From: an uncultured Solirubrobacteraceae bacterium
GTDB taxonomy: Bacteria; Actinomycetota; Thermoleophilia; Solirubrobacterales; Solirubrobacteraceae
NCBI GenBank assembly: GCA_963730575.1
Contig: CAVSSG010000002.1
Location: 359,707-423,706, forward strand
Direction of reading: 5' to 3'
Length of the DNA: 64,000 nucleotides
In this document: positions 6,254 through 54,812 of the stretch, one piece after another
Position numbering within the stretch: the first letter of the stretch is position 1
How the letters are laid out: every line of letters starts with the position of its first letter
The notes under the pieces: generated by a model
The model's input: the letters and a program-made list of their open reading frames with translations, nothing else
Database searches by the model: none
Told to the model about the DNA's origin: nothing
Position numbers and translations under genes: made by a program

Positions 6254-9231
6254 TCAGATCGCGCCGCGTGCTCTTTGATAGACGCGGCTGGCGTAGAGGC
6301 CCTTCAGCGCTTCCCGTAGCTCTGTCTCATCAAGAACCCGCTTGACGATTGCCTCGTTGTCGTCCATGCGGCTGATGATCGTGCTCATGAAGCGATCATC
6401 GAAGGCGAGGCGGAAGTTCTCAAGAGTGTTAGCTCGCGCCTGGTCGATGACCGTTGGGATCGGCCATCCAAGTCTGCTCGAACTGGTCGAAGAGCAGCTT
6501 GTCGCGCTCGTCAAGGTTTAGGCCGAATCGCTCGTTGAGTTGTTCGATGATGTCCGAGAGCGGTTCTAGGGGCGGCTCGGCCTGCTTGCCAGCGCCCTCT
6601 CCGTAGATTGTGATGACCTCGCCTGTCTCCGCGTCGAGCGAGAGGGAACCTTCGGAGGTGACCTCGTTACGAAGGTGCGTGAGTTCGACCTCTTCTCCGA
6701 GATCGAGGCGTTCGACGGTTGCTGCATCACGCAGCTTGGACGCCAGCGCTCGGCAGTACGTGTAGTCGCGCTCAAGCGTCGAGTCTTGGAACGAGACTAC
6801 CTGGGAGAGGAACGAGTAGATACGCACGAACTTGTCTACGCCTTCCTTGAATTCAAGCCGCTGCTCCTCCTCCAAGAGCCCGAAACCTCTCAACCGCTGG
6901 GTCGAGTAGGGCGTAGACCTTCCCGTGATCCTTTGGACGCTCGATCTTCAGCAGCAAGGCGACCGTAGCCTCGATCTCCTCTGGCCGCAGGACATCGAAA
7001 TCGTCTAGGCGACGGCGAGTGTCGAACAGCAGGTTCGGATCACTCGGGGGAGCGACGGTTCTCCCGTAATACGGCTCGAACGCGTCAACGATGTCCTCGG
7101 CCTCGTTGCGGAAGTCAAGGACGAACGTGTCCTCCTTTTCCCGATGCCAGCGGTTGAGCCTTGAGAGCGTCTGGACCGCGCTCAGGCCGGTCAGAATCTT
7201 GTCCACGTACATCGTGTGGAGCAAAGGCTGGTCGAAACCCGTCTGGAACTTCTCAGCGACGATCAGTACCTGGTAGGCGTCTTCAGCGAAGCGGTCAGCC
7301 GTTTCCGACATGGGAAAAGCATTCATCTGTGCCTCGGTGTAGGTCAGGGCCTTCTCGTCAATGACCGTGCCCGAGAACGCCACTAGCGTGGTCAGGTCCT
7401 CGTAGCCCTTGCTCTTGATGTAGCGGTCGAGCGCCTGCTTGTAGCGCACAGCGTGAAGGCGAGAGGAAGTGACGACCATCGCTTTCGCCCGCCCGCCAAT
7501 CTTGGGAGCCGTGTGGGTGCGGAAGTGCTCGATGATGACCTCGGCCTTCTGGGCGAGGTTCGTCGGGTGCAGCGACACGAAACGGGCTATCGCACGTCGT
7601 GCCTTCGGTCCCTCGTAGGTCGGGTCCTCGGCGACCTTCTTCTCGATCCGCCAGTAGGTCTTGTAGGTGGTGTAGTTGGCCAGCACGTCGAGGATGAAGT
7701 GCTCCTCGATGGCCTGCCGCATCGAATACAGGTGGAACGGCTCGTAGACGCCCTTGTCCGGGTTGAGACTGCCGAACATCTCAAGCGTGCGAGCCTTCGG
7801 CGTCGCCGTGAATGCGAAGAACGAGAGGTTCGGCTGTTTGCCACGGGCACGGACCTCTTTCGCGACGGCCTCCTCAACCGGATCGGTTGCCGCAGCGATG
7901 AAGCCCGCGTCCTCCGCCTCAGCCGCCGTTAGCTCCTGCTCCTCGGTCGCTCCGAGGACAAGGCGCAACTCCTTCGCCGCCTCTCCGGTCTGGGAAGAGT
8001 GCGCCTCGTCCACGATCACGGCATAGCGCCGGTCAGGAAGCAAGCCAACCTTGTCGAGCACGAACGGGAACTTCTGCAAGGTCGTGATGATGATGCGGGC
8101 CTGCTCTCCGGCGAGGGCGTTCGCAAGCTGGGACGAGTCCTCATCGATCCTCTCGACCACTCCCCGAGCGTGCTCGAACTGGTAGATCGTGTCCTGAAGC
8201 TGTTTGTCCAGGATCACCCGATCTGTGATCACGACCACCTTGTCGAACACCTTCGAGTCGCTGGCGTCGTGCAGCGAGGAGAACCTGTGAGCAGCCCAAG
8301 CAATCGTGTTGGACTTCCCGGAGCCAGCAGAGTGCTCGATCAGGTAGTTCGACCCAGCGCCGTGCGTCTTGGCGTGGGCCTCTAGCTTCAGCACCGCATC
8401 CCATTGATGGAAGCGCGGGAAGATGACCTTCTCGGCTGCACGGCGAGCAGCCGGAGAGCCTTTCGAAGGCCGCTCAACGTGGATGAACCGGGCAAGGATG
8501 TCCATCCAAGAGTCACGGGTCCAGACACGCTCCCAGAGGTAGGAGGTCCGATGGCCATCGGGGTTCGGTGGGTTGCCTGCTCCGCCATCATGGCCGAGGT
8601 TGAATGGCAGGAACTGCGTAGCCTGGCCTGCGAGCTTGGTGGTCATTGCCACGCGATCCGGATCAACTGCGAAGTGGACGAGAGCACGGCGAGCGAGACT
8701 GACGTTCTTCGGGTCCCGGTCGGTGCGGTACTGCCTTATGGCGTGCTCGACCGTCTGGTCCGTCAACTGATTCTTTAGCTCCGCAGTAGCAGTAGGAATG
8801 CCGTTGACCAGGAGGGCTAGATCGATTGTCCTGCCGGAGTCGGCGTCGTAGGGGAACTGGCGGGTGACGCTCACTCGATTGGCCTCGTACAGCTTCTGAA
8901 GCTCTGGCGTCAGGCCGTGGGCGGGCTTGAAGTACGCCAGATGGATCGTGACCCCCAAATCCACGACCCCGCGCCTGAGCACATCAACAGTGCCTCGGTT
9001 ATCAAGCTCGCTTGCTAGCCGCTTCGCGAAACGTGCCCGAGCTTCCTGCCCATGACGACCGGCGAGATCGGCCCAGTCCTTCGCCTGTGTAGCCTCAATG
9101 AACGCGAACAACTCGTCTAGGTCCAGCCCGAGGGTCGCGTCGAAGTTCGACGGCAGGGACTTGAGATAGCCGTGCTGGGTGAGCAAAGACTCCTCGATGG
9201 CATCCTCGAAAAGCTTCTCGTCAACGCTCAT
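6254..9231 (-). CDS. hsdR: Type I restriction enzyme subunit R (two apparent frameshifts near 6873 and 6456)
   Basis: IDLALLVNGIP.ATAELK nuclease motif, HSAGSGKS Walker A, IVDEAH, FTATP, FQTGFDQP, QTLSRLNR; C-terminus continues in ORFs 6429..6893 and 6254..6514. Confidence 0.92.
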
Positions 9232-10478
9232 GCCACTACTCCGGGGATCTGTAGCTCGCCCGTCACGGCGGCGGTGATGAGCGCTTGGCGATGCTCTTGG
9301 AGACGAACTCGCCCCTCTTCGTGCAGGCGAGACAACTCATGCGTTGATCTCTGGACTCGGTTGAACCGCGCAGCGAGTCTTACTTGAATAGGCACTGGAG
9401 GCAGTGGGATCGTCTGTGCGAGAAGATCAGGAAGTAGCAGGTTCTTCAGCGTCGTTGCGGCATTCGTTTCATTGAGATACAACAGAATCAACGGGAGCAA
9501 CGTCCTCAGGAAGCCAACGCTCAGTCGATCTCGCGGTAAGACGCGGCAGACGCGTTGATTGAGGGCCGCACGCCCGCCTTCCCAAGTACCGCAAGCGAAC
9601 TCCCCGGTAAGGCCGACGATCAGATCGCCAGTATTGACGTATGCGCTGTCGGGAACGTTTGTCGCTACATAGGTGTCCGTGTAACCCCTTACCACGTCAC
9701 CGATTCTAATGAGCGGAGTGCCCGCCGAATCGTGCGAAATATCATCCGAGTTGAACGCATACCCGTTACTAACGTGTACGACATCCCTTAGACGGACGAC
9801 CGGCCAGGTCCTCGGCACCTGCCCCGCCCACCATGCGAGTGAGACAAGCTGAGTGTCGTTCTCCCCGTCTATCGCCGTCCCAGAGAATGTCTCTTCCGCA
9901 CGCACTCGAAAGAGTCGTTCCTCCAGCAACTCGACCATCCGCTGCTTCTTCTCGATGAGCGCATCAATACGAGCGGTTTCGGTGTCCAGAAAGTCGGCGA
10001 TGACAGATTGTGTCGCAAGCGGTGGCAGCGCAAGCGGCACGGTCTTCAGATCATCCCACGCGATGTCATTCTGATTCGGCGGCATCCACTTTGATATGCG
10101 CCTAAGCTCCTGTGCCCATGGTGCGGCGTGCAGAAGGTAGTCGGCGTACCTACTATCCACCATGTCTCGTCGTGGGCGGCAAACAAAATAGGCAGGGCTG
10201 ACGATCCCAGAGAATTGCGATACTCCAAGTGCGCCTTGCCAAGTGCGGAGTTTGTTGAAAACGAGATCGCCTGGCTGCACAACCAAGTATGACGAGAGAT
10301 CGTCGCTGAGTGCCTTATAGGAGTAATCGCGGCTCGCTCTGGGTAGTACACCCTGGCCCGTAAATACGGACAGCGGTTCAAGAGCCTTGCCACCGGCCTT
10401 CTTTGATCGGTCGAACGCAACATCCAGCCGAACACTCGTCCACTCGGGCGGCAATACGGCTCCTGGCGGAGAAGTCAC
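9228..10478 (-). CDS. hsdS: Type I restriction specificity subunit S
   Basis: Two TRDs each followed by LPPL/LPPV..Q conserved regions; ends ALITAAVTGEL; overlaps hsdM and hsdR by 4 bp. Confidence 0.93.
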   Translation of the reverse strand: MTSPPGAVLPPEWTSVRLDVAFDRSKKAGGKALEPLSVFTGQGVLPRASRDYSYKALSDDLSSYLVVQPGDLVFNKLRTWQGALGVSQFSGIVSPAYFVCRPRRDMVDSRYADYLLHAAPWAQELRRISKWMPPNQNDIAWDDLKTVPLALPPLATQSVIADFLDTETARIDALIEKKQRMVELLEERLFRVRAEETFSGTAIDGENDTQLVSLAWWAGQVPRTWPVVRLRDVVHVSNGYAFNSDDISHDSAGTPLIRIGDVVRGYTDTYVATNVPDSAYVNTGDLIVGLTGEFACGTWEGGRAALNQRVCRVLPRDRLSVGFLRTLLPLILLYLNETNAATTLKNLLLPDLLAQTIPLPPVPIQVRLAARFNRVQRSTHELSRLHEEGRVRLQEHRQALITAAVTGELQIPGVVA

Positions 10479-12469
10479 CGCGCTACCTCGGCCAGCAGCG
10501 TCTGAATCTCGGCCTCTAGCACTTTGATCTCGGCATCGATCTCAGCCAGCGGTCGCGGTGGAACGTATTTGTAGAAATAGCGCGTGAGCGCGATCTCGTA
10601 GCCGATCTTGGTCTTCTCATGATCCACCCACGCGTCTGCCACGTAGGGGAGAACCTCACGCTCCACGTACTCTTCGACCGAGGTTCCGTACTCAAGGCTG
10701 GCGAGGCGCTCGGTCGGGTCTGCCTCCCATGAGACTGGGATGTTGGGTAGGGGGACCTTCTCGTTGTCTCGAAGCTCGGGGTCCGGCTGCGGATCGCCCC
10801 TCCGGTCGGCGATGATCGGGGCGTCGGAGTCTCGAAAGCTGAGGACATCCCAGACCTGTTTATCGATCCCCTTCGGTACGGAGCCGAGCTTGGAGGCCAT
10901 CTGTTTGCGCTGCGTCGCGGTGACGCCCACGAGGTCTTTGAGCCGGGCTTCTAGGTCTGCTTGCTCTTGAAGCGTGAGCTTCTTCCACTGCTTGGTCGCG
11001 GTCAACTGCTCTATTGCGTCCGAAGGAACCTCCCAGCGCAGACGTAGTGGCCGCTCGACCGTGATGCGCTGATAGCCGAATGCCTCGTTCGGGAATATCT
11101 TGACTTGCTCGTGTTGTCCGAAGTCGGCGTAGAGCCGTGTGATTTCGTTGATCTGTTCGGCGCTGATTTCCTTGCGCTTTTCTCCGAGAGACTTGCGCAT
11201 CTTGACCGAGTAATCGCGGGCATCGATTAGCTGGACCTTGCCCTCGCGCTCTGGGCGCTTGCGGTTAGTGACGATCCAGAAGTACGTCGAGATGCCGGTG
11301 TTGTAGAAGAGTTGATCTGGCAGGGCAACGATGGCCTCTAGCCAATCGCTCTCGATGATCCAGCGGCGAATCTCAGACTCCCCAGACGCCGCCGCTCCGC
11401 TGAAGAGCGGCGATCCATTGAAGACGATGGCTAGGCGGCTTCCTCCGTCCTCGACGGGCTTCATCTTCGAGATCATGTGCTGAAGGAAGAGGAAGCTCCC
11501 GTCGTTGATCCTGGGCAGGCCCGCGCCAAATCGCCCGCGAAATCCGAGGCTCTCATGCTCGCCACGGATCGAGCCCTCGACCTTCTTCCACTCGACGCCA
11601 AATGGCGGATTAGCGAGCAGGTAGTCGAATGTCTCGCCCTGGTGGCCGTCCTCGCTGAAGGAGTTGCCGCACACGATGCGCGAGGGGTCATCGCCCTTCA
11701 GCATCATGTCCGAGCGGCAGATGGCGTACGTCTCGTCATTTAGCTCCTGGCCGAAGACCTCAAGGCGGGCAGTTGGGTTGTGCTCGGCCAAATAGTCCTT
11801 GGCGACCGAGAGCATTCCCCCAGTCCCGCAGGCTGGGTCTAGGAGCGTCTTGATCGCGCCTGGATCGGCAAGGGCCTCATCGTCCTCTGCAAAGAGCAGG
11901 CTCACCATGAGGCGGACGACCTCACGGGGGGTGAAGTGCTCTCCTGCCGTCTCGTTCGATAGCTCCGAAAAGCGCCTGATTAGCTCCTCATAGAGATAGC
12001 CCATCTCCGTGTTCGAAACGACCGAGGGGTGCAGGTCGATGTCCGCGAACTTCGAGATGACCAGATACAGCAGGTCGGCTTTGGCCAGGCGCGTGACTTG
12101 CCCGTCGAAGTCGAACTTGTCGATGACCTCCCTCGCTCCTGGACTGAAGGCCGCGATGTAGGCTCGAAGGTTGCCCGCAAGCTGCCCTGGATCGTTCAGG
12201 AGCTTTCGGAAGTCGAGCGGCGAAGTGTTGAAGAACCTCTCGCCAGCGACGTTTTCGAGGACCGGCTCGACGTTCTCAATCCGGCCTTTGAGCTTCTGGG
12301 CACGGTCGAGGACGGCCTCCTTCGTCGGCTCAAGCACGCAGTCAAGGCGGCGCAAGACGGTCAGGGGGAGGATGACCCTGCCGTACTCCGACTGCTTGTA
12401 GTCCCCCCGCAGCAGGTCGGCCACCGACCAGATGAAGGCAGCGTGGTTCTTGATCGTGTCCTCAGCCAT
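10475..12469 (-). CDS. hsdM: Type I DNA methyltransferase subunit M
   Basis: FIWSVADLLRGDYK, GEHFTPREV, LDPACGTGGML (motif I), NPPFG (motif IV, m6A). Confidence 0.95.
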   Translation of the reverse strand: MAEDTIKNHAAFIWSVADLLRGDYKQSEYGRVILPLTVLRRLDCVLEPTKEAVLDRAQKLKGRIENVEPVLENVAGERFFNTSPLDFRKLLNDPGQLAGNLRAYIAAFSPGAREVIDKFDFDGQVTRLAKADLLYLVISKFADIDLHPSVVSNTEMGYLYEELIRRFSELSNETAGEHFTPREVVRLMVSLLFAEDDEALADPGAIKTLLDPACGTGGMLSVAKDYLAEHNPTARLEVFGQELNDETYAICRSDMMLKGDDPSRIVCGNSFSEDGHQGETFDYLLANPPFGVEWKKVEGSIRGEHESLGFRGRFGAGLPRINDGSFLFLQHMISKMKPVEDGGSRLAIVFNGSPLFSGAAASGESEIRRWIIESDWLEAIVALPDQLFYNTGISTYFWIVTNRKRPEREGKVQLIDARDYSVKMRKSLGEKRKEISAEQINEITRLYADFGQHEQVKIFPNEAFGYQRITVERPLRLRWEVPSDAIEQLTATKQWKKLTLQEQADLEARLKDLVGVTATQRKQMASKLGSVPKGIDKQVWDVLSFRDSDAPIIADRRGDPQPDPELRDNEKVPLPNIPVSWEADPTERLASLEYGTSVEEYVEREVLPYVADAWVDHEKTKIGYEIALTRYFYKYVPPRPLAEIDAEIKVLEAEIQTLLAEVAR

Positions 12470-20208: not shown

Positions 20209-20281
20209 GGGGCCATAGCTCAGATGGGAGAGCGCCTGCTTTGCAAGCAGGAGGTCACCGGTTCGATCCCGGTTGGCTCCA
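20209..20281 (+). tRNA. tRNA-Ala(TGC)
   Basis: Full cloverleaf GGGGCCA/TGGCTCC with G3:U70, anticodon loop TT-TGC-AA, TTCGATC T-loop; CCA not encoded. Confidence 0.97.
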
Positions 20282-20313
20282 CTGCAGAAGTGCCTGCAAA
20301 TGGGCCGGTTTTA

Positions 20314-24099: not shown

Positions 24100-27000
24100 A
24101 TGGCGGACGGACATGGGGGGCTTAGTTCCGAGCGGCCTGCTAATTGGCGCGCGTCGGTCGGCGTGCGCTGGGCGGGGCCTGCGGTGCGCCTGGTGGTTGT
24201 CGCGGTTGCCCTCTTCAGCTCTGTGCTCACCCAGGCAGCGAGCGCGTATGGACCTGGGTTCTCTTGGACACCTTCTGCGACTGAGCCCTACGCGGCGTGC
24301 GGTCGTCCTACGCCTGGTCATGCTGAGTGCTTGGCGGTGCTCGTTCCGCCCGCCACAAAAGCCTCCTTGACCGCCCCGCTGCGAGAAGCCGCTCCGTCGG
24401 TGAGCCCGACCTACACGGGCACCGGTGTCGGGGGAGGCTATGGTCCCGCGGACCTGCGCTCCGCATACAATCTCCCCTCAGAAGCAGAGGGCTCCGGACA
24501 GACGGTGGCGATCGTCGACGCCTACAACGATCCCAATGCAGAAGTCGATCTGGGCACCTACCGCTCGCAGTATGGGATCCCGGCGTGCACGACGGCCAAC
24601 GGCTGCTTCAAGAAGGTCAACCAGACCGGGGGCACCACCAACTACCCATCGTCGAATGCCGAATGGTCCGTTGAGATCTCCCTCGACGTGGACATGGTGT
24701 CCGCCGCCTGCCCGAACTGCCACATCCTGCTGGTCGAGGCCGAATCGAGCTCAAGCGCCAACCTGGACAAATCCGAGGACGAGGCGGTCACGCTCGGGGC
24801 GACCGAGGTCAGTAACAGCTGGGTTGGCCCGGAGGAATCCGATGAGACATCGACGGACAAATATTTCGATCACCCGGGCGTGCCGATCGTGGCAGGGGCG
24901 GGCGACTCCGGTTACGGAGTCGCCTACCCGGCAGCCTCGCAGTATGTGATCGCCGCCGGCGGGACGAGGCTGATTCAGGCATCGAACTCGCGGGGGTGGA
25001 CTGAGACCGTCTGGGAGGAAAAAGAAAAGGGAATCGGCACGGGCAGCGGCTGCAGCGCCTATGAGCCAAAGCCAACCTGGCAGACCGATAAAGCATGTAC
25101 GCGGAGGACAGATGACGACATCGCGGCTGACGCCGCGGTGGAAACACCCGTCTCCGTAGCGGATTCATACGAACTTCCGACCAAGTTCGCCGAACGGTCG
25201 ACGCAGGCGGGATGGACGTTGGTGGGTGGGACTAGCGCCGCCAGCCCGTTCATCGCAGCGACGATGGCGCTGGCGAGCCCCCATACGAGATCACTCGGCG
25301 CCGAGGCGTTCTACATGGAGGCCACAAGCGGCGGCGGCATCAACGATGTGGTGTCCGGGAGCAACGGAAAATGCACGCCGCCCGCCGAAGACGAATATCT
25401 CTGCACCGCACAGGTCGGCTACGACGGGCCGACGGGCGTGGGCACCCCCTGGGGCGCCCCGCAGGCGCCGCCGACGGTCGTCACAAAAGCTGCCTCTTCC
25501 ATCACCCAGACCTCGGCCACCCTGAACGCAACGGCGAACCCCAACGGCGGGTCGGTCAGCGAATGCAAGCTCGAATACGGCACCACGACCTCCTACGGCT
25601 CAAGCGCGTCGTGCGCCCCATCGCCGGGGTCAGGTGAAAGCGCGGTGGCAGTGTCCGGGTCGATAGCGGGCCTGACTGCGAACACGACCTACCACTTCAG
25701 GATCTCGGCAGCCAACTCCGGCGGCACGACCAAGGGCTCAGACGAAACGTTCAAAACGACGGAAGCAGCCGCCACGCCCCCGACCGTCGAAACAAGAGCG
25801 GCCTCGGCGGTCAGCCAGACCACCGCGACCCTAAACGCGACCGTGAACCCCAACGCCGGGTCGGTCAGCGAATGCAAGCTCGAATACGGCCTAACAAACA
25901 CCTACGGGTCAAGTGCCACTTGCACGCCCTCGCCGGGATCGGGGACCAGCCCCGTAGCGGTCTCCGCGGCCGTCACGGGCCTTAGCCCGAACACCACCTA
26001 CCACTTCAGGATCTCCGCCACGAACGCGGGCGGCACGAGCAAGGGCTCTGACGAAACCTTCAAAACACTCGTGAGCCCACCAACCGTCGTGACCAAGGCG
26101 GCTTCATCGGTCGCGCAGACTACCGCGAGCCTGAACGCGAGCGTGAACCCCAACGGCGGGGAAGTCAGCAAGTGCGAATACGAATATGGCGAAACCGCTG
26201 CTTACGGGAAAACGGCTCAGTGCGGCTCGCCGCCCGGGTCGGGGACGAGCCCAGTCGAAGTCACGGCCTCGCTTACGGGGCTCACAGCGAACACCACCTA
26301 CCACTTCAGGATCTCAGCGACGAACGCGGGCGGAACCAGCAGGGGGTCTGACGAAACGTTCAGGACGCTGCCGAACCCTCCGACGGTCGCGACGTGCTCG
26401 GCGGCATCGATCACCCAGACCTCGGCGAGGTTGCACTGCACGGTTAACCCCGGCGGCGCCGAAGTCACCGAATGCAAGTTCGAATTCGGCACCACCAACT
26501 CATACGGCTCAAACGCCGCGTGCACGCCGCCGCCGGGGTCGGGGACCAGCCCGGTCGAAGTGTCCGCAGAAGTCACGGGCCTTAGCACAAACACGACGTA
26601 CCACTTCCGGATCTCGGCGACGAACTCCGGCGGCACGGGCACAGGCTCTGACGAAACGTTCACAACCCTGCCGAACGCCCCGATGGTCGTGACCAAAGCG
26701 GCCTCGGAAGTCAAACAGACGACAGCGACGCTGAACGCGACGGTCAACCCCAACGGCGGGAACGTCACCAAATGCGAATTCGAATACGGCGAAACGACCT
26801 TCTACGGCAACACGGCCTCCTGCGCCTCGCTGCCGGGTTCGGGGACGAGCGCCGTTGCGGTCTCCGCAGCGGTCACCGGCCTCGCAGCGAACACGACCTA
26901 CCACTTCCGCATCTCCGCGACGAACGGCGGCGGCACGAGCAAGGGGGCAGACGAAACGCTCAAAACGCTGCCCAACGCCCCAGCGGTCGTGACGAAACCG

Positions 27001-30000
27001 GCCTCCTCGGAAACGCAGACCACGGCGACGCTCAACGCGACCGTCAACCCCAACGGCGGGAACGTCGAAAAATGCGAATTCGAATACGGCGAAACGACCT
27101 CCTACGGCAAAACGGCCTCCTGCGCCTCGCTGCCGGGATCCGGAGAAAAACCGATAGCGGTGTCCGCGTCGGTCACGGGCCTTGCCGCGAACACCACCTA
27201 CCACTTCAGGATCTGGGCGACGAACGCGGGCGGCACGAGCAAAGGCTCTGATGAAACGGTCAAGACGCTCCCGAACGCCCCGACAGTCGTGACCAAACCG
27301 GCCTCGGAAATCAAACGGACGACAGCCACGCTGAAGGCGACGGTCAACCCCAACGGCGTGAACGTCGAAAAATGCGAATTCGAATACGCAGCCGCCGCGT
27401 ACTACGAACTGACGAAATCCTACGAAGTGGCCGTGGCGTGCACGTCGCTGCCGGGCTCGGGCACCAGCCCCGTCGCCGTCTCCGCGATGCTCACGAGCCT
27501 CACGGCGAACACGACGTACCACTTCCGGATCTCGGCGACGAACTCCGGCGGCACGGGCACAGGCTCTGACGAAACGTTCACAACCCCCCTGAACGCCCCA
27601 GCGGTCGTGACGAAACCGGCCTCCTCGGAAACGCAGACCACGGTGACGCTCAACGCGACCGTCAACCCCAACGGCGGGAACGTCGAAAAATGCGAATTCG
27701 AATACGGCGAAACGACCTCCTACGGGAAAACCGCCTCCTGCGCCTCGCTGCCGGGGTCGGGGACGAGCCCCGTCGAAGTGTCCGCAACGCTCACGGGCCT
27801 CACGGCAAACACGACCTACCACTTCCGCATCTCGGCGACGAACGCCGGCGGCACGAGCAAGGGCTCTGATGAAGCGTTCAAAACGCTGCCCAACGCCCCG
27901 ACGGTCGTGACGAAACCGGCCTCGGCGGTCACTCGGACATCGGCGACGCTGAACGCGACGGTCAATCCGAACGGCAGGGAAGTCACCGAATGCAAGTTCG
28001 AATACGGCGAAACCAAAGCGTACGGGTCCACGGTCCCCTGCACGCCGTCGAAACCGGGGTCTGGCAGCGGCCCGGTCGCGGTGTCCGCAGCGGTGACGGA
28101 CCTTGTCACGAATGTCAGGTACCACTTCAGGATCTCGGCGACCAACGCCGGCGGCACGAGCACGGGCGCAGACCAGAGATTCGAAACCGATCCCCCGACG
28201 GTGGTGACCCAGGGGGCCTCGTCGGTCACGCAGACCACGGCGACTCTCAACGCCAGCGTGAACCCCGGCGGCGAAGAACTCAGCGAATGCGAGTTCGAAT
28301 ACGGCACCACGACCGCCTACGGATCAAGCGCGCCGTGCTCCTCCACGCCCGAAGGCGTGGAATACCCCGTGCCCGTGTCCGCATCGATCTCCGGCCTCAC
28401 CGCCAACACGACCTACCACTTCCGCATCTCGGCCACCAATCCGAGCGGCCCGAGCAAGGGCACCGACGAAACGTTCAAAACGTCGCCGAACTGCACGGCC
28501 GAAGGCTACTGCGCGACCTTCACTGCCCCCAACAACATCGAAGGAAGCCTCAAGGAACCCGAAGCGCTGGCCGTTGACGGAAGCGGGAACACCTGGGTCG
28601 CGGACTCGGGCCACGACCGCGTCATCGAGTTCAACTCCAAACACGAATACCTCAGGCAGTTCGGCTCGGAAGGCACCGCCGAAGGCCAGTTCCAGGGGAT
28701 CAGGGGCATCGCCACGAACAAAGAAGGCGACGTCTACGTCTCCGACTACGCCAACGACCGCGTGCAGGAGTTCTCCCCGACGGGCGCCTTCATCCGCAAG
28801 TTCGGCTCTGCGGGCACCTCCGCCGGGCAGTTCCTGCATCCCACCGGACTCGCGGTCGACTCGAGCGGCAACGTGTGGGTACTCAGCAGCTTCGGCGTGA
28901 TCGTGCAGGAGTTCTCATCAGAAGGCACCTACATCTCGGGCTTCGGCTCGCTGGGCACGGGCTCCGGGCAGTTCGAGGGAGCGGCGGGCATCGCCATCTC
29001 CGGCGGGAACCTGTACATCTCCGAATGGTCTAACCAGCGCGTGCAGGAGTTCTCGTCCGCCGGCGTCTTCATTAGGGCCTTCGATGAAGCGGGCTCGGGC
29101 ACCGGCAAGTCGAGTTTGCCGTGGGGCATCGCCACAGAACCCTCCACGGGCAACCTCTACGTCGCAGAAGTCGGCAACGACCGTGTGCAGGAGTTCAGCT
29201 CCTCGGGGACCTTCATCGCCGCCTTCGGCTCGGCCGGCTCGGGCGCAGAACAGCTCTCTGCACCCAAGGGCGTCGCCGTAAGCTCCACAGGTGCGATCGC
29301 GATCGCCGACACGGGCAATCAGCGGATCGAGCAGTGGAGCTCAGGCGAACCCCCCACCTATACCGGCACCTTCACGGCCCCCAACAACATCGAAGGCGCC
29401 TTCAAGGAACCCGAAGCGCTGGCGGTCGACGGAAGCGGGAACATCTGGGTCGCGGACTCGGGCCACGACCGCGTCATCGAGTTCAACTCCAAACACGAAT
29501 ACCTCAGGCAGTTCGGCTCGGAAGGCAGCGGAGAAGGACAGTTCCAGGGGATCAGGGGCATCGCCGCAAACTCAGAAGGCGACGTCTACGTCTCCGACTA
29601 CGCCAACGACCGCGTGCAGGAGTTCTCCCCGACGGGCGCCTTCATCCGCAAGTTCGGCTCTGCGGGCACCTCCGCCGGGCAGTTCCTGCATCCCACCGGA
29701 CTCGCGGTCGACTCGAGCGGCAACGTGTGGGTGCTCAGCAGCTACGGCGTCATCGTGCAGGAGTTCTCATCAGAAGGCACCTACATCTCGGGCTTCGGCT
29801 CGCTGGGCACGGGCTCCGGGCAGTTCGAGGGAGCGGCGGGCATCGCCATCTCCGGCGGGAACCTGTACGTCTCTGAATGGGGCAACCAGCGCGTGCAGGA
29901 GTTCTCGACCGCCGGGCGATATATCATGCAGTTTGACGAAGCGAGCTCAGGCATATCCAGCCTGCCGTGGGGCGTCGCCACAGACCCGACGACGGGCAAC

Positions 30001-30198
30001 CTCTACGTCACAGAGGTCGGGAACAATCGCGTGCAGGAGTTCACTGCCGAAGGCAGCTTCATCGCCGCATTCGGCTCCCCCGGCTCTGGCAACACCCAGT
30101 TCTCAGGCCCTAGGGCGGTAGCCGTGAGTACCACCGGCACCATCTACGTCGCCGACACCCTCGACAATCGCATCGAGGAATGGATGCCGACGCCGTAG
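24100..30198 (+). CDS. Secreted S53 (sedolisin-like) peptidase with 10 FN3-like repeats and two NHL beta-propellers
   Basis: EISLD, AGAGDSG and GGTSAASP catalytic motifs; ten ~100-aa PTVVT...CEFEYG...TTYHFRISATN repeats; two near-identical NHL blocks. Confidence 0.92.
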   Translation: MADGHGGLSSERPANWRASVGVRWAGPAVRLVVVAVALFSSVLTQAASAYGPGFSWTPSATEPYAACGRPTPGHAECLAVLVPPATKASLTAPLREAAPSVSPTYTGTGVGGGYGPADLRSAYNLPSEAEGSGQTVAIVDAYNDPNAEVDLGTYRSQYGIPACTTANGCFKKVNQTGGTTNYPSSNAEWSVEISLDVDMVSAACPNCHILLVEAESSSSANLDKSEDEAVTLGATEVSNSWVGPEESDETSTDKYFDHPGVPIVAGAGDSGYGVAYPAASQYVIAAGGTRLIQASNSRGWTETVWEEKEKGIGTGSGCSAYEPKPTWQTDKACTRRTDDDIAADAAVETPVSVADSYELPTKFAERSTQAGWTLVGGTSAASPFIAATMALASPHTRSLGAEAFYMEATSGGGINDVVSGSNGKCTPPAEDEYLCTAQVGYDGPTGVGTPWGAPQAPPTVVTKAASSITQTSATLNATANPNGGSVSECKLEYGTTTSYGSSASCAPSPGSGESAVAVSGSIAGLTANTTYHFRISAANSGGTTKGSDETFKTTEAAATPPTVETRAASAVSQTTATLNATVNPNAGSVSECKLEYGLTNTYGSSATCTPSPGSGTSPVAVSAAVTGLSPNTTYHFRISATNAGGTSKGSDETFKTLVSPPTVVTKAASSVAQTTASLNASVNPNGGEVSKCEYEYGETAAYGKTAQCGSPPGSGTSPVEVTASLTGLTANTTYHFRISATNAGGTSRGSDETFRTLPNPPTVATCSAASITQTSARLHCTVNPGGAEVTECKFEFGTTNSYGSNAACTPPPGSGTSPVEVSAEVTGLSTNTTYHFRISATNSGGTGTGSDETFTTLPNAPMVVTKAASEVKQTTATLNATVNPNGGNVTKCEFEYGETTFYGNTASCASLPGSGTSAVAVSAAVTGLAANTTYHFRISATNGGGTSKGADETLKTLPNAPAVVTKPASSETQTTATLNATVNPNGGNVEKCEFEYGETTSYGKTASCASLPGSGEKPIAVSASVTGLAANTTYHFRIWATNAGGTSKGSDETVKTLPNAPTVVTKPASEIKRTTATLKATVNPNGVNVEKCEFEYAAAAYYELTKSYEVAVACTSLPGSGTSPVAVSAMLTSLTANTTYHFRISATNSGGTGTGSDETFTTPLNAPAVVTKPASSETQTTVTLNATVNPNGGNVEKCEFEYGETTSYGKTASCASLPGSGTSPVEVSATLTGLTANTTYHFRISATNAGGTSKGSDEAFKTLPNAPTVVTKPASAVTRTSATLNATVNPNGREVTECKFEYGETKAYGSTVPCTPSKPGSGSGPVAVSAAVTDLVTNVRYHFRISATNAGGTSTGADQRFETDPPTVVTQGASSVTQTTATLNASVNPGGEELSECEFEYGTTTAYGSSAPCSSTPEGVEYPVPVSASISGLTANTTYHFRISATNPSGPSKGTDETFKTSPNCTAEGYCATFTAPNNIEGSLKEPEALAVDGSGNTWVADSGHDRVIEFNSKHEYLRQFGSEGTAEGQFQGIRGIATNKEGDVYVSDYANDRVQEFSPTGAFIRKFGSAGTSAGQFLHPTGLAVDSSGNVWVLSSFGVIVQEFSSEGTYISGFGSLGTGSGQFEGAAGIAISGGNLYISEWSNQRVQEFSSAGVFIRAFDEAGSGTGKSSLPWGIATEPSTGNLYVAEVGNDRVQEFSSSGTFIAAFGSAGSGAEQLSAPKGVAVSSTGAIAIADTGNQRIEQWSSGEPPTYTGTFTAPNNIEGAFKEPEALAVDGSGNIWVADSGHDRVIEFNSKHEYLRQFGSEGSGEGQFQGIRGIAANSEGDVYVSDYANDRVQEFSPTGAFIRKFGSAGTSAGQFLHPTGLAVDSSGNVWVLSSYGVIVQEFSSEGTYISGFGSLGTGSGQFEGAAGIAISGGNLYVSEWGNQRVQEFSTAGRYIMQFDEASSGISSLPWGVATDPTTGNLYVTEVGNNRVQEFTAEGSFIAAFGSPGSGNTQFSGPRAVAVSTTGTIYVADTLDNRIEEWMPTP

Positions 30199-43293: not shown

Positions 43294-45055
43294 ATGGGTT
43301 TCATAGCGCCGTCGCCACCCCCGGTCGATGTCGAGGAGTGGAAGCAGCTTCCCTATCTGCAGCGCATCAAGCCGCTCGCGCAGGATTGGGCGATCAACGG
43401 CTTCGGCACGCCGACGGCCGTCTACCTGGCCTACGTAGTCAAGCTCGTCGTCTTCGTGCTCGGTGCCGCGCTGGTCATCTCCGCATCGACCCCTGCCCTC
43501 GGCGGTCTGGGGAGCATCTCGAGCTGGTGGACGGACCCGATCGTCTTTCAGAAGGCCGCCGTGTGGACGATGCTGTGGGAGATCATCGGGCTCGGGGCGG
43601 GCTCCATGCCCCTCACCTTCCGCTTCGTGCCGCCGATCGGCGGCACCCTCTACTGGCTGCGTCCCGGCACGATCCGGCTTCCGCCGTTTCCCGACCGCGT
43701 TCCGCTCACCCGCGGCTCGACGCGAACCTGGTTCGACGTGGCTCTCTATGCCGGCGTGCTCGCCGCCGGCATGAACCTGCTCGTCTCCTCCGGCGAGGCC
43801 GTCGCGGGCACACCGGCCGGCCGGCTGGACCCGGTCGCGATCGGCGTCATGCTCGGCCTGCTCGCGCTCCTGGGCCTGCGCGACAAGGTCTCGTTCCTGT
43901 GCGCGCGCCCAGAAGTCTACGGGCTGCTGCTGCTCGTCTTCCTGTTTCCGCTCAGCGAAGTGATCGTCGCCAGCCAGCTCGTGCTCGTCTGCATCTGGTG
44001 GGGCGCGGCAGCGTCCAAGCTCAACAAGCACTTCCCCTTCGTGGTGGCGGTAATGATCAGCAACACGCCATGGAATCGATCGCGCCGGGCCAAGAGCCGT
44101 CTGTATCGAGACCACCCCGACGACCTGCGTCCCTCGCGCGAGGCGGCGTTCGCCGCGCACCTCGGCACGGTCATCGAGTTCGCGCTGCCGCTGGTGCTGC
44201 TGGTGTCACGTGGAGGCACGCTGTGCACGATCGCCGTGGTGGGGATGATCATCTTCCACGTGCACATCACCTCCACCTTCCCGCTGGCGGTGCCACTGGA
44301 GTGGAACCTGTTCATGATCTTCGGCCTGCTCTTCCTCTTCGGCCATTACGGCGACGTCCCGTTCTCAACGCTCCAGGATCCGCTGCTCGTGGCGATCATT
44401 GTCGTGATTGGCGTCGTCATACCGGTGATCGGCAACTTCCGCCCGGACAAGGTCTCGTTCCTTCCGTCGATGCGCTACTACGCGGGCAACTGGGCCACGA
44501 GTCAGTGGTTGTTCCGCAGGGACGGCGCGGAGGAGAAGTTCGATCACGCGCTCGACAAGCCGGCGCGTGTCCCGGTCGAGCAGGTGGCCGGCATCTACGA
44601 TCGCGAGACCGCCGAGCTGCTGCTCACGAAGGGCCTCGCGTTCAGGTCGATGCACTCACACGGCCGAGCGCTGAACGGACTGGTCTTCCGGGCCGTCGAG
44701 GACATCGAGGAGTACTCGGTTCGTGAGGGTGAGCTCATCGCGGGAGTTGCCGTCGGGCTGGAACTTCGGCGATGGGCACTTCCACAGCGAGCAGCTGCTC
44801 GAAGCGGTGCAGGAGCGCTGTCGTTTCGGCGAGGGCGAGCTGCGGGTGGTGATGCTCGAGTCCCAGCCCGTGAACTCCCCGCGCCAGCACTACCGCATCT
44901 ACGACGCCGCCACCGGCCTCGTCGAGGAGGGCTGTGTGCGGGTGGCCGACATGGTCGAGCGCCAGCCGTGGCTCGATGAGATCGGCACGTTCCCGGTCGA
45001 GGTGGTTGCCCCGAGCGCCGCCCTGAAGCCCGCGGGAGCCGCGGTGTCGCAGTGA
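43294..45055 (+). CDS. DUF3556-family membrane protein (frameshift near 44757)
   Basis: GAAASKLNKHFP, PLAVPLEWN, SFLPSMRYYAGNWA, GWNFGDGHFH. Confidence 0.85.
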
Positions 45056-46469
45056 GCGAGGCGATCGTCGTCGGGTCCGGCCCGAACGGCCTGGCCTGTG
45101 CGGCGGTGCTCGCGCGGGCGGGAGTCAAGGTGAGCGTGCTGGAGGCCGAGTCCACGATCGGTGGTGGCAGCCGCACGAGCGAATCGACGCTTCCGGGCCT
45201 GCTGCACGACGACTGCTCCGCCGTGCATGCGATGGCGGTCGGAGCGCCGTCGCTGAACAAGCTCGGTCTCGAGCGCCACGGCCTGGAGTGGTGCTGGCCG
45301 GAGGTCGACCTCGCACATCCGCTCGACGGTGACGGCGCGGGGGTGATGGTGCGTTCGATCGCGGATACCGCAGAGGGACTCGGCGAGGACGGGCGCGCGT
45401 GGCGGCGCCTGTTCGAATCCTCAGCCGCGGGGTTTGAGCCACTGAGCGAGGACATCATGCGACCGCTTCTGCACGTGCCGCGCCACCCGGTCCGACTCAT
45501 GCGGTTCGGGCTGCCGGCGGCACTGCCCGCGACGCTGCTGGCGCGCGCGTTCGCAGGCGAGGAGGCACGGGCGCTGTTCGGCGGCTGCGCGGCACACTCG
45601 CTCAGCCCGCTGTCGCAGCCGATGAGCTCGGCGATCGGGGTGGCGCTGATCTGCGCCGGCCATCGCTACGGCTGGCCGGTGGCACGCGGCGGGTCCTCGC
45701 GCCATCAGCAACGCCCTGGCCGCCGTCGTGCGCGAGCACGGCGGGAGCATTCAGACCGGGCGGCAGGTGAGGTCCCTGTCCGAGCTACCGCCGGCCGACG
45801 CGGTCGTGCTCGACCTCGCGCCCGGCGCCGTCGTCGAGATCGCCGGTGAGCGGCTGCCCGCGCGCGTCGCGCGCGCCTACCGGCGCTACCGGCACGCTCC
45901 CGGGGCGTTCAAGGTCGACCTCGCGGTCGCCGGTGGCGTGCCGTGGCGCAGCGCGGCCGCTCGCCGCGCGGGCACCGTGCACGTGATCGGGGCCTTCCGG
46001 GAGATCGTCGGCGGCCGAGCGCGCGATCAACCGCGGGCGCATGCCCGAGCGTCCATTCGTGCTCGTCTGCCAGCAGTCGCTCGCCGACCCGACCCGCTCC
46101 AAGGACGACGTCCACCCGGTCTGGAGCTACGCGCACGTCCCGTCCGGCTACACCGGCGACGCGACCGAGGCCCTGCTCGACCAGATCGAACGGTTCGCGC
46201 CGGGACTGCGCGAGAGGATCCTGGCGAGGGCAGTCCGCTCGACGACCGAGATGGAGCGCTACAACGCCAACTACGTCGGTGGCGACATCATCACCGGCGC
46301 CAACACCGGGCTGCAGGGCGTCATCCGCCCGCGCCTGGCCTTCGACCCCTACAGCACGGGCATCCCGGGCGTGTTCATCTGCTCCGCGGCGACCCCGCCG
46401 GGGGCCGGCGCGCACGGAATGAACGGCTACAACGCGGCCCGATCGGTTCTCGGGAACCTGGCGAGGTAG
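45052..46469 (+). CDS. Phytoene dehydrogenase-like FAD oxidoreductase (frameshifts near 45700 and 46010)
   Basis: VVGSGPNGL, HDDCSAVH, NANYVGGDI, CSAATPPGAGAHGMNGY. Confidence 0.88.
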
Positions 46470-46554
46470 AGCAACTACGCCGTCACGCGCCCATGCTCGG
46501 CCCGGGCATGCTTAGATTATGAGCCTGTCAGCATCCTGAACTGGCAGATAGCGC

Positions 46555-46650
46555 GCGCCCGTAGCTCAGTGGTCAACGGTTCTCTTCGGGGAGCCAAAGA
46601 GCAGCGGTCTTTCAAGCCGCAGGCCGCGGGTTCGATTCCCGCCGGGCGCA
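46555..46650 (+). tRNA. Atypical 96-nt tRNA, anticodon TTC (nominally Glu), with extra hairpin in the D-loop
   Basis: Acceptor GCGCCCG/CGGGCGC+A, D stem GCTC/GAGC, anticodon arm GCGGT-CTTTCAA-GCCGC, T arm GCGGG-TTCGATT-CCCGC; D-loop 31 nt. Confidence 0.88.
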
Positions 46651-51603: not shown

Positions 51604-53708
51604 ATGCCCGACCGCGACATCCAGCGACTGTCGATCGACACGATTCGGGGTTTGGCGATGGATGCGGTGCAGCAGGCCAACGCCGGACATCCCGGTACGG
51701 CTATGGCACTCGCTCCGCTGGCCCACACGCTGTTCACCGGGTTCTTGCGGTGCAACCCGAAGGACACCACCTGGCCGGATCGCGACCGCTTCGTGCTGAG
51801 TGCCGGGCACGCGTGCATACTGCAGTACTCGCTTCTGCATCTCGTCGGCTACGAGCTCGGCCTCGACGATCTGAAGCAGTTCCGCCAATGGGGCTCGCGC
51901 ACCCCCGGGCATCCCGAGCGCGGCCACACGCCCGGGATCGAGATCACGACCGGGCCGCTCGGCCAGGGCCTCGGCAACGCCGTCGGCATGGCCATGGCAG
52001 AGCGCTTTCTGGCAGAGCGCTTCAACCGTCCCGGCCACGAGATCGTCGACCACCGTGTCTACGCGATCTGCTCCGACGGCGACCTGATGGAGGGAGTCAG
52101 CCAGGAGGCGGCCTCGATCGCGGGGCACTTCGGGCTCGGCAAGCTGGTCGTCTGCTACGACGACAACCACATCACGATCGACGGCACCACCTCGATCTCC
52201 TTCGACGGCGAGCAGCACGTGGAGCGCTTCCGGGCCGAGGGCTGGCACGTGCAGCGGGTCGAGGATTCAGAGGACCTGGAGGCCCTGCACGGCGCGATCG
52301 AGCGGGCACGCGCCGAAGAGCAGCGCCCGTCGTTGATCGCGATCCGCTCGCACATTGCCTACCCCGCGCCGCACGCGGTCGATACCGCCAAGGCCCACGG
52401 TGCGCCGCTGGGGGAGCCGGAGGTGAGGGCCACAAAGGAGGTCATGGGCTTCGACCCCGAGGTCAAGTTCTGGGTCGACGAGAGCGTCTATCGGCACATG
52501 TCCCTGATCGAGCGCGGCGCGGCCGCGCAGAGGGAGTGGAAGGAGCGCCTGTTCGACCCCTGGCGCGAGGCCTTTCCGGACATGGCGCGCGATTGGGATC
52601 TAGCCTCGCGCGGCCGGCTGAGGGATGGCTGGCGGGAGTCGCTGCCGCGCTTTCGGGCCGGCGAGGAGCTCGCCACCCGCTCGGCCGGCCAGAAGACTAT
52701 GGCCGCGTTCGCGGAGTTCGCCCCGACGATGATCGGCGGAGCCGCCGACCTCGTCGAGTCGACGAAGACGCTGTTCGACGGCGGCGGGGAGTTCTCCAGG
52801 GTGCACGCCGGACGAAACGTGCCCTTCGGCATTCGCGAGCACGCGATGGGCGCGATCGTCAACGGCGCCGCGGCCCACGGCGGGATCGTCAAGCCGTACG
52901 GATCGACATTCCTGGTGTTCTCCGACTACATGCGCCCGAGCGTGCGGCTGTCCGCGCTCATGGGTCTGCCCGTCGTCTGGGTCTGGACCCACGACTCGGT
53001 GGCTCTCGGCGAGGACGGCCCGACCCACCAGCCGATCGAGCACTACGCCGCGCTGCGCGCGATCCCCCACCTGTGGGTGATCAGACCGGCCGATGCGAAC
53101 GAGACCGCGGTTGCGTGGCGGGTGGCGCTCGAGCGCGAGGACGGTCCGGTCGCGCTGCTGCTCTCCCGCCAGAACATCCCGGTGCTCGACCGCGACGAGC
53201 TCGACGAGCGCCGAGGAGCTCGAGCTGGGCGGCTACGTGCTGTGGGACTCGGGTGCCGGGGGAGCGCAGGCGGTCACGGCCGGCCGGGAGGATGGCGCCG
53301 GGCGACGATCCCGACGTGATCCTCATGGCCACGGGCGCCGAGGTGTCGCCGACGCTCGCGGCCGCGCAGATGCTCGCCGACGAGGGCTCTCGCGTGCGGG
53401 TCGTCTCGATGCCCTGCATGGAGCTGTTCGAGGCCCAGCCGCTCGAGTACCGCGAGCAGGTGCTCCCGCGCGAGGTGAGCGCGCGCCTGGCGGTCGAGCC
53501 GGGCGCGACGATGAGCTGGTGGAGGTGGGTGGGCTCGGAGGGAGATGTCCTGGGGCTCGACCGATTCGGCGCCTCGGCACCGGGTACCACGGTCTTGAAG
53601 GAGCTGGGCTTCAGCGCGGAGAACATCGCCTTGCGCGCCAGGGCTCTGCTCGAGCGGCACGAGTCCGATACCGAGCTGAACAAGGAGATCGAACGATGTC
53701 CTCTGTAA
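51604..53708 (+). CDS. tkt: Transketolase (frameshift near 53210-53300)
   Basis: [62 protein letters not shown]. Confidence 0.95.
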
Positions 53709-54812
53709 ACCTCTCCCCGCTGCGGCTGCTGTCCTCGCTGGGGCAGAGCGTGTGGATCGACTTCCTCTCCCGCGAGTCGATTCGCGGCGGGCACCTGCAG
53801 AGCCTGCTCGATGAGGACTCGGTCGTGGGCGCGACGTCGAACCCACGATCTTCCAGAAGGCGATGGCCGACTCGGGACGCCTACGAGGGGCAGCTGTCGC
53901 GAGCTCGACTCCGGACTGGACATCAAGGACGTCTTCTGGGCGCTGGCCGAGCAGGACATACGCGAGGCGTGCGACCTGTTCCGCCCGGTCTGGGACGGAG
54001 GCGAGGGCCGCGACGGGTACGTCTCACTGGAGGTGGACCCCGGCCTCGCCTACGAGACGCTGTCCACGTTCGGTGAAGCGATGCGCATGCACGAGGCCGT
54101 GGACCGGCCCAATCTGATGGTCAAGATCCCCGCCACCAAGCCGGGACTGGCGGCGATCGAGGACGTGATCGCCAAGGGCCGCTCGATCAACGTCACGCTG
54201 ATCTTCTCGCTGCGCCGCTACGCGGAGGTCGCCGAGTCCTACCTGCGCGGGCATCGAGCGCCTGATCGCCGAGGGCGGCGACCCCGCCACGGTGGCGTCG
54301 GTGGCGAGCTTCTTCGTCTCGCGCATCGACACCGAGGCCGACAGGCGCCTTGACGAGCTCGGCGGCCACGACGCACCTGAAGGGCAAGCTCGCCGTGGCC
54401 AACGCGAAGCTCGCCTACAGCCACTACCAGCAGGCGTTCTCGGGCCCGCGCTGGGAGTACCTGGCATCGAAGGGCGCCAGGCCGCAGCGGGTGCTGTGGG
54501 CATCCACATCGGTGAAGAACCCCGTCTACCCCGACACGATGTACGTGGAGGAGCTGATCGGCCCGGACACGGTCAACACGATGCCCGAGGAGACGATCAG
54601 GGCCTACCAGGACCACGGCCGCCCGCAGCCGCGGCTCGGATCGGGGCCTCGCGGACGCACGCAGGCTGCTCGACGAGCTCGCGCGCGCCGGCGTCGACTA
54701 CGAGGACCTCACCGACACTCTCGAGCGCGAGGGAGTTGAGAAATTCTCCGACTCCTTCCAGGAGCTGCTCGGGGCCCTGCAGGATAAGCGCGCCTCGCTG
54801 GTTGCAGCGTGA
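53696..54812 (+). CDS. tal: Transaldolase (several frameshifts)
   Basis: [62 protein letters not shown]. Confidence 0.93.

Follow-up and report, generated by a model that had tools for sequence, protein, structure and literature searches.

A tRNA with an additional D-loop arm replaces canonical tRNA-Glu(UUC) in four genera of the Solirubrobacterales and may mark a natural expansion of the code at GAA

In four genera of the Solirubrobacterales, canonical tRNA-Glu(UUC) is replaced by a tRNA that has the same anticodon but carries an additional helix in its D-loop, and GAA and GAG behave as different residues in the genomes possessing this armed tRNA. The armed tRNA, a LeuRS paralogue (LeuRS-X), and a biosynthetic gene were found to be linked and co-inherited, as expected of a cassette of the pyrrolysine type. 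Judging from the gene sequences, LeuRS-X probably charges the armed tRNA with a non-standard, Glu-like residue made by a PLP enzyme. With somewhat less assurance, we favor the broader interpretation that these genes constitute a natural sense-codon expansion of the genetic code at GAA, based on mobile cassettes of tRNA, LeuRS-X, and biosynthetic genes that are not bound to one anticodon, with a LysRS paralogue (LysRS-X) acting in parallel at AAA.

Results

The window, the whole 64,000-nucleotide stretch of DNA analysed here, derives from an uncultured Solirubrobacteraceae bacterium, whose genome (G000) is 65% complete and belongs to a genus denoted g1. On the forward strand, positions 46555-46650 constitute a 96-nt tRNA gene with the anticodon UUC and without an encoded CCA. 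The match to RF00005 scored 66.6 bits (gathering threshold, 29), with a 25-nt insert placed in the D-loop. Sequence inspection located the acceptor stem at 46555-61/46643-49, A73 at 46650, the D-stem, which contains C11-G24 and C13-G22, at 46564-67/46599-602, and the anticodon TTC (UUC, reading GAA) at 46611-46613; the variable loop is 5 nt, the T arm is normal, and U8 and U33 are present. The four canonical stems and conserved tRNA positions described in an earlier note on this DNA were thus borne out, as was its 31-nt D-loop with a 7-bp stem. The loop (46568-46598) comprises A14, G18G19, a conserved 5' linker, the extra arm, and a 3-nt 3' linker, and the arm (46578-46595; strands 46578-84/46589-95) has seven base pairs, two of them G:U, closed by a 4-nt loop at 46585-88. 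The same note had expected standard scanners to mis-score the gene, and ARAGORN indeed took the extra arm for the anticodon arm and returned '???'; across loci, its labels for armed tRNAs were ???, Pro, Ala, or Arg. A promoter and terminator scan around the armed tRNA found nothing; a possible -10-like hexamer at 46513-46518 (forward strand) was recognized by eye only, and the sigma-70 scan gave no site.

Several other features of the genome were observed. The genes flanking the tRNA (43294-46469 and 51604-54353), named by eye as phytoene-dehydrogenase-like, transketolase, and transaldolase, are frameshifted, and so are GluRS and other genes of G000; these frameshifts are probably long-read assembly errors. 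ORFs at 6429-12469 resemble, by eye, type I restriction-modification subunits and lie upstream of a tRNA-Ala (20209-20282). A tRNA with an ACC anticodon (A34) and an Arg-like body at G000:C5:241725-241800 is possibly a decayed attachment-site copy.

The armed tRNA is widespread. Among the best 29 other loci of the same genus, 16 were 100% identical to the window tRNA, and a GTDB pattern scan returned 118 stretches from 15 of the 64 parts (approximately 540 estimated overall), in entries titled Solirubrobacterales, Solirubrobacteraceae, Thermoleophilia, or Actinomycetes. The observation is real; the identical loci together with the wide spread ruled out an assembly error. The armed tRNA was present in 19/19 g1 genomes, in 11/11 g78 genomes, and in all three g70 genomes checked out of 20. 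The 15 viral matches (L538-L552) all carry an arm too, with very different sequences; several of these armed tRNA(UUC) genes lie inside full tRNA arrays. Eight genomes (G009, G011, G027, G031, G032, G034, G404, and G406) hold duplications of its 3' half that begin at the anticodon loop, which marks the armed tRNA gene as a common integration site.

The earlier note had asked whether the genome has other TTC tRNAs; none was found in G000, where tRNA-Glu(CUC) is the sole companion of the armed tRNA for Glu. A pattern for any UUC tRNA gave matches in 34/36 and 7/7 g1 genomes (two samples), and the tRNA-like ones, among the matches listed, were armed copies or duplicated 3' halves. When 20 g1 stretches were rechecked, ARAGORN reported Glu(TTC) in G159 only (L560 177-251, G159:C32), a gene that resembles a UUC tRNA but has a long anticodon stem and lacks a normal D arm. 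Within the genus, then, no intact tRNA that reads GAA was found other than the armed one. In other genera of the family, 19 of 20 loci were canonical Glu(UUC) with U11-A24, and the remaining one was a long armed form. Outside g1, loss of the canonical gene was examined in one g78 and three g70 genomes.

Covariation in the extra stem, which the earlier note had proposed as a check, was evident. Of the 175 arm cells in 25 distinct 31-nt D-loops (the set comes from 200 loci of hosts and phages), 172 are paired, against a mean of 122.6 and a maximum of 137 in 2000 shuffles; in 12 hand-picked rows, two of the seven arm pairs were changed on both sides. The C(UUCG)G loop occurred in just 6 of the 25 variants, so that the conserved features are the stem length and the linkers, and the weight that the note had laid on cUUCGg was misplaced. 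This pattern indicates that the helix and position of the arm, but not its loop sequence, are under selection. The minimum-free-energy structure computed for the sequence by itself gives the D-loop other pairings (z = -1.64), and the arm accordingly rests on covariation and not on folding energy.

The covariation upholds the proposal that the tRNA belongs to a non-canonical class which retains its arm. The alternative that the arm is removed by processing found no support, given a D-loop length fixed within 30-36 nt among the short armed forms and, more weakly, the contigs from three of four RNA-library runs (X2, X11, and X14), which span the whole tRNA with the arm kept and no joint, and which neither prove transcription nor exclude a processed form; X6 yielded no contig. 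No Rfam intron or ribozyme match was found in the armed-tRNA inserts of five loci, and the long inserts gave tRNA only. As for the role of the arm, the suggested protein docking is probably correct, with LeuRS-X the likely partner. A purely non-ribosomal role, which had also been suggested, is unsupported because the armed tRNA is the sole intact UUC tRNA found in a genus where GAA makes up 17% of the Glu codons (figure for G000). Additional armed UUC tRNAs were noticed at L127/L170 (G030:C1:1881885; a different body, a 35-nt D-loop, and an 8-bp arm) and at L146 (a 36-nt D-loop).

The armed family as a whole has D-loops of 30-156 nt and the anticodons UUC, UAG, UUG, or UGU. Eight long UUC loci (g3 and g44) share the same body and have D-loops of 128-144 nt, and the long-form carriers G043 and G208 keep canonical Glu(UUC) as well. 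Long inserts (128-156 nt) have an internal helix and a small hairpin in common, and the 7-bp arm appears, from these sequences, to be the minimal form of a D-loop domain that reaches 128-156 nt in relatives. Six further armed tRNAs, selected by construction for their adjacency to additional LeuRS-X copies, have the anticodons UAG (L302, L303, and L398), UUG (L304 and L401), or UGU (L305) in unusual anticodon loops; L305 adjoins an NRPS-like ORF and FabD/FabG. No precursor ORF rich in the cognate codon was found near the long forms.

According to the accessible part of PMC9976931, U11-A24, U13-G22:A46, and a lack of residue 47 are major determinants of Glu identity, and Leu identity in E. coli depends on A73 and the D/T-loop elbow, with the anticodon not used. 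Where Glu identity calls for U11-A24, U13-G22, and the deletion of residue 47, the armed tRNA shows C11-G24, C13-G22, and a variable loop of 5 nt. The deletion is not decisive, because some canonical Glu(UUC) of other genera also have a 5-nt variable loop. The window copy has part of the Glu set (U34, U35, C36, A37, and G1-C72), and its first 18 nt are identical to those of the tRNA-Arg(CCG) of G000; the armed copies of g84 have C37. Each of five genomes has one GluRS-family gene, and a second GluRS, a GlnRS, or a GluQ as charging partner was rejected, none being found in 5/5 genomes. MnmA was present and MnmG was not found in the same number of genomes (5/5), a combination that would permit GAA and GAG to be told apart.

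LeuRS-X of G000 (754 aa; G000:C1:244736-247000, minus strand) is encoded outside the window, in a genome that also has canonical leuS. Its linkage to the armed tRNA is clearest for the eight long UUC forms, which were found by the tRNA pattern alone and all lie no more than ~150 nt upstream of a LeuRS-X gene. The adjoining gene is intact in four (g44) and degenerate in four (g3); in g3, an intact copy lies ~12 kb from the armed tRNA. In G388 (g84), the three genes form an operon: a short form with a 31-nt D-loop precedes LeuRS-X by ~10 nt, and a PLP gene of the threonine-synthase family comes next. In G406, a 3' half of the armed tRNA occupies the same place beside LeuRS-X. The armed tRNA is not adjacent to LeuRS-X in g1, and in g70 and g78 it is near the LysRS paralogue instead.

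Strong LeuRS-X matches were obtained in 59 of 301 genomes of the order: g1 19/19 in addition to G000, g78 11/11, g70 19/20, g84 2/2, g44 2/2, and g3 5/13, the five positive g3 genomes being exactly those that bear the armed tRNA. In this count, 12 weak matches (355-407 bits) were taken as canonical LeuRS without individual checks, and G364, G215, and G635 appear as negative rows only in the denominators for LeuRS-X, LysRS-X, and possibly the PLP enzyme. LeuRS-X was not found outside the Solirubrobacterales in 301 genomes of the class, and no clear orthologue was seen in the viral contigs. A tree of 23 of 29 rows groups LeuRS-X in a single supported clade, in which the g3 enzyme and the short-UUC enzymes are sisters.

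The structural model of LeuRS-X has the LeuRS fold (pLDDT 81; Foldseek TMq 0.79). The replaced positions are Lys43, Ser45, Ala46, Phe48, His468, Ala471, Leu474, and the Asp512-Arg521 stretch, which we take to line the leucine pocket. The pocket residues vary by clade, in step with the neighboring genes. LeuRS-X shares with bacterial LeuRS (TIGR00396; PDB 7NU4, 1H3N, and 4AQ7) the fold, the ATP motifs HIGH and KMSK, and the amine-binding Asp (Asp85), but differs in the pocket, in its degenerate editing motifs, and in the absence of the C-terminal domain; the g44 enzyme scored 419 bits on TIGR00396, against a cut-off of 548. The independence of Leu identity from the anticodon (in E. coli it depends on A73 and the D/T elbow) accounts for the free variation of the anticodon in this family.

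The neighbors of LeuRS-X differ among clades. In g44 (L196 and L199-L201), a long armed tRNA(UUC) and LeuRS-X are divergent from SbnA/SbnB, which presumably synthesize 2,3-diaminopropionate, and the neighbor in G373 is a TauD-type hydroxylase. A cluster in g3 (L297-L301 and L308; G043, G249, G284, and G038) contains LeuRS-X, LysW, homocitrate synthase, LysA-, LysX-, ArgC-, ArgB-, and DapF-like genes, two aminotransferases, an ATP-grasp, and a GATase, and it also holds the long armed tRNA(UUC) and a degenerate second LeuRS-X. Its gene content points to an amino-group-carrier pathway to some amino acid. No convincing match to a homocitrate synthase/LysW (2-aminoadipate) route was found in G000 (65% complete).

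In G000, the gene directly behind LeuRS-X encodes the PLP enzyme (G000:C1:243408-244709, minus strand; outside the window). The paralogue was found in 37 of 271 genomes, confined to g1, g70, g78, and g84. It is closest to threonine synthase models and scored 55-61 bits on TIGR03844 (cysteate synthase), whose cut-off is 325. G000 also has thrC in a lysA-hom cluster, as well as a related threonine-synthase-type copy followed by a small ORF that is MoaD-like by eye; from its motifs and gene context, we presume this copy to be MetM. The LeuRS-X-linked enzyme aligns with it at 48% over 156 aa, and no sulfur carrier was seen beside it. Some PLP enzymes of the threonine synthase family use sulfite, and cysteate synthase does replacement chemistry. 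MetM and cysteate synthase (TIGR03844) exemplify, within this family, the chemistry proposed here, but the LeuRS-X-linked enzyme is a separate paralogue, far under the cysteate synthase cut-off. Its closeness to threonine synthase and the MetM-like copy in G000 suggest a gamma-replacement on O-phosphohomoserine, either free or on tRNA. The MetM-like copy and its small ORF have the MetM/MetO layout given in PMC13759103, where MetM is a sulfur-carrier-dependent homocysteine synthase.

The two Glu codons are distributed unequally in the armed-tRNA genomes. G000 has 9673 GAA in its gene calls, and with a crude, codon-blind classifier GAA accounted for 53% of the Glu codons in genes predicted to be secreted, against 15% in those predicted to be cytoplasmic; the control codons showed no such difference (CAA, 10% vs 10%; GAT, 20% vs 22%). 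The corresponding GAA shares were 48/11% in other g1 genomes, 55/14% in g78, and 36/14% in g70, compared with 5/8% in G272, 3/3% in long-form carriers, and 11/6% in the others. The codons switch at the membrane within single genes: across the membrane segment, GAA falls from 8/12 to 4/56 in FtsH of G000 and from 12/16 to 1/16 in a CHASE2-like cyclase. In the FtsH comparison of 29 of 30 loci, GAA outside vs inside amounted to 55/65 vs 15/314 in g1, 19/26 vs 12/132 in g78, 12/22 vs 8/123 in g70, and 3/73 vs 25/496 in controls, several of which are a second FtsH type.

Position within the protein also matters. The catalytic Glu of GH16 is GAG in 16/16 cases (8 genes, 5 genomes) against 74 GAA/55 GAG overall, with a product p of 3e-7 that overstates the significance, as the genes are related and the genomes are not independent either. 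Within G000, the catalytic Glu is GAG in GH16 (4/4, one non-GH16 match left out), S53 (2/2), and CoxII (2/2), and the NEP and HExxH motifs gave no information. In exported domains, by contrast, conserved Glu without a catalytic role have become GAA. A likely client in the window is an S53-type peptidase/repeat protein (24400-30198, forward strand), which has 98 GAA vs 29 GAG and whose ExxLD Glu is GAG. In RpoB/C, EF-G, EF-Tu, and their neighbors from 15 armed-tRNA genomes, GAA was used at 3.2% of invariant vs 13.1% of variable Glu columns in g1, 2.8 vs 17.5% in g78, and 4.0 vs 14.6% in g70; in the controls, by which invariance was defined, the values were 3.1 vs 5.8% (p = 8e-8). GAA sites align to Glu in 55-66% and, next most often, to Asp, and GAA encodes about 3% of the invariant Glu, repeatedly so at some positions of RpoB, RpoC, and EF-Tu. 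The residue at GAA must thus be very Glu-like or partly Glu.

A LysRS paralogue with an altered pocket was found at G000:C3:127563-129203 (relatives at L283, L285, L286, L361, and L379). LysRS-X occurs in g1, g70, g78, and g84, but it was likewise found in G272, G301, and G088, three genomes that retain canonical Glu(UUC). In the groups examined for it (g1, g70, g78, and G272), AAA is raised yet shunned at invariant Lys, and G272 displays this AAA effect with no GAA effect. We therefore assigned LysRS-X to AAA usage, as a second system. Its neighbors include lysine 5,6-aminomutase (g1), diaminobutyrate transaminase (G356), and a PrmC-like methylase (f4), and LysRS-X may possibly represent a second code expansion with lysine analogues. 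A histone-like Lys-rich protein was seen near LysRS-X (L361:15465-15893, L377, and L378), with 15-19 AAA vs 5-7 AAG.

Discussion

We propose that LeuRS-X, and not GluRS, would charge the armed tRNA. Because LeuRS-type enzymes ignore the anticodon, the D-loop arm may serve as an identity element in place of the contact between the variable arm and the C-terminal domain. A 2-thio-U34 without the 5-methylene group would keep the armed tRNA on GAA, while tRNA-Glu(CUC) would supply true Glu at GAG, and the non-standard residue would enter mainly exported proteins. For the gamma-replacement envisaged for the PLP enzyme, sulfite as the nucleophile, giving L-homocysteate, is a guess by analogy that is more doubtful than not; such a residue might stay anionic at low pH outside the cell. 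Weighing against the proposal are the separate locations of the armed tRNA and LeuRS-X in g1, g70, and g78, the degenerate adjoining copy in g3, and the long-form carriers, which retain a canonical tRNA and have equal GAA shares in the two protein classes (3% vs 3%).

Other explanations were considered. The armed tRNA might be a true tRNA-Glu of unusual form that receives Glu from GluRS, or from LeuRS-X as a second GluRS, the bias then reflecting translation rate or gene history. We regard this as improbable, although GAA aligns mainly to Glu and sits at some invariant Glu, the window copy has U34, U35, C36, A37, and G1-C72, and phages carry the armed tRNA as the UUC member of tRNA arrays. Such a reading fits poorly with a GAA/GAG switch at a transmembrane segment inside single genes, with GAG at catalytic and GAA at conserved non-catalytic Glu of the same domains, or with the lack of such bias for CAA and GAT. 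Core Glu determinants are missing, and the co-inherited PLP enzyme and the occurrence of the same body with UAG, UUG, and UGU would be left unexplained. Charging by LysRS-X is very unlikely: in G272 and G301, a canonical Glu(UUC) adjoins LysRS-X and LeuRS-X gave no match, the AAA effect in G272 comes without a GAA effect and LysRS-X tracks AAA, and four of five g3 carriers gave one LysRS match only. These observations outweigh the proximity of LysRS-X to the armed tRNA in g70 and g78 (1-7 kb), its presence in g1, g70, g78, and g84, and its altered pocket.

A role as a non-ribosomal amino-acyl donor for biosynthesis is plausible for the long forms, which lie in amino-acid biosynthetic clusters and coexist with the canonical tRNA and rare GAA. 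With the short form, no second intact tRNA for GAA turned up, and there are 9673 GAA codons in the gene calls of G000; we give this explanation very little credence for the armed tRNA of the window. Scarcely credible is the view that the arm is an intron or an intron remnant absent from the mature tRNA. Relatives do bear structured inserts of 128-156 nt at the same place, but stem length and linkers are fixed while the loop sequence is free, no Rfam intron or ribozyme was matched at five loci, the arm is kept without a joint in contigs of three of four RNA-library runs (weak evidence), and its removal would not restore Glu identity. Charging by LeuRS-X with a non-standard, Glu-like residue remains our preferred explanation.

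Comparison with known systems places the armed tRNA apart. It resembles canonical tRNA-Glu(UUC) in its cloverleaf, UUC anticodon, A37, G1-C72, and GAA slot, and differs in the arm, in the missing determinants, and in a codon that is non-synonymous with GAG. The pylTSBCD operon unites tRNA, synthetase, and biosynthetic genes in one cassette, and both systems combine an atypical tRNA, a dedicated synthetase, and biosynthetic enzyme(s). PylRS is a class II enzyme and acts at amber, whereas the enzyme here is class Ia and LeuRS-derived and would act at a sense codon, at thousands of predicted sites; moreover, the armed family has four anticodons and several pathways. Streptomyces ProRSx/tRNA-ProA causes deliberate mistranslation with a canonical residue and competes with the normal tRNA. 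Both there and here, a synthetase paralogue stands beside a tRNA with a mismatch between anticodon and body and with variable anticodons; in the present case, however, the normal tRNA has disappeared, the synthetase has a rebuilt pocket, and a biosynthetic gene accompanies the pair.

Allo-tRNAs, tRNA-Sec, and tRNA-Pyl are, like the armed tRNA, natural non-canonical tRNAs, and the D-arm serves as a protein determinant for SelA and PSTK; in contrast to the armed tRNA, no helix inserted in the D-loop is described in the accessible part of PMC7609411, from which these points are taken. The reassignment of ACA from Thr to Asp is likewise a sense-codon change, with a 10-nt D-loop, a canonical residue, and no synthetase paralogue mentioned in the accessible part of the source (10.64898/2026.05.03.722492). 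A literature search, outside which subscription papers and bioRxiv supplements lay, found no account of the armed tRNA, LeuRS-X, or the codon split.

Even if GAA encodes Glu, the sole GAA reader has an architecture absent from the literature searched and is mis-annotated by ARAGORN. If our proposal is true, the ribosome tolerates a tRNA with a helix built into its D-loop, and natural orthogonal tRNA/synthetase pairs exist that are independent of the anticodon and have their own biosynthetic genes. Codon-inference screens would miss the change at GAA, because GAA still aligns to Glu. For a large group of soil bacteria, the Glu box of the standard code would then be divided, with a new amino acid encoded proteome-wide.
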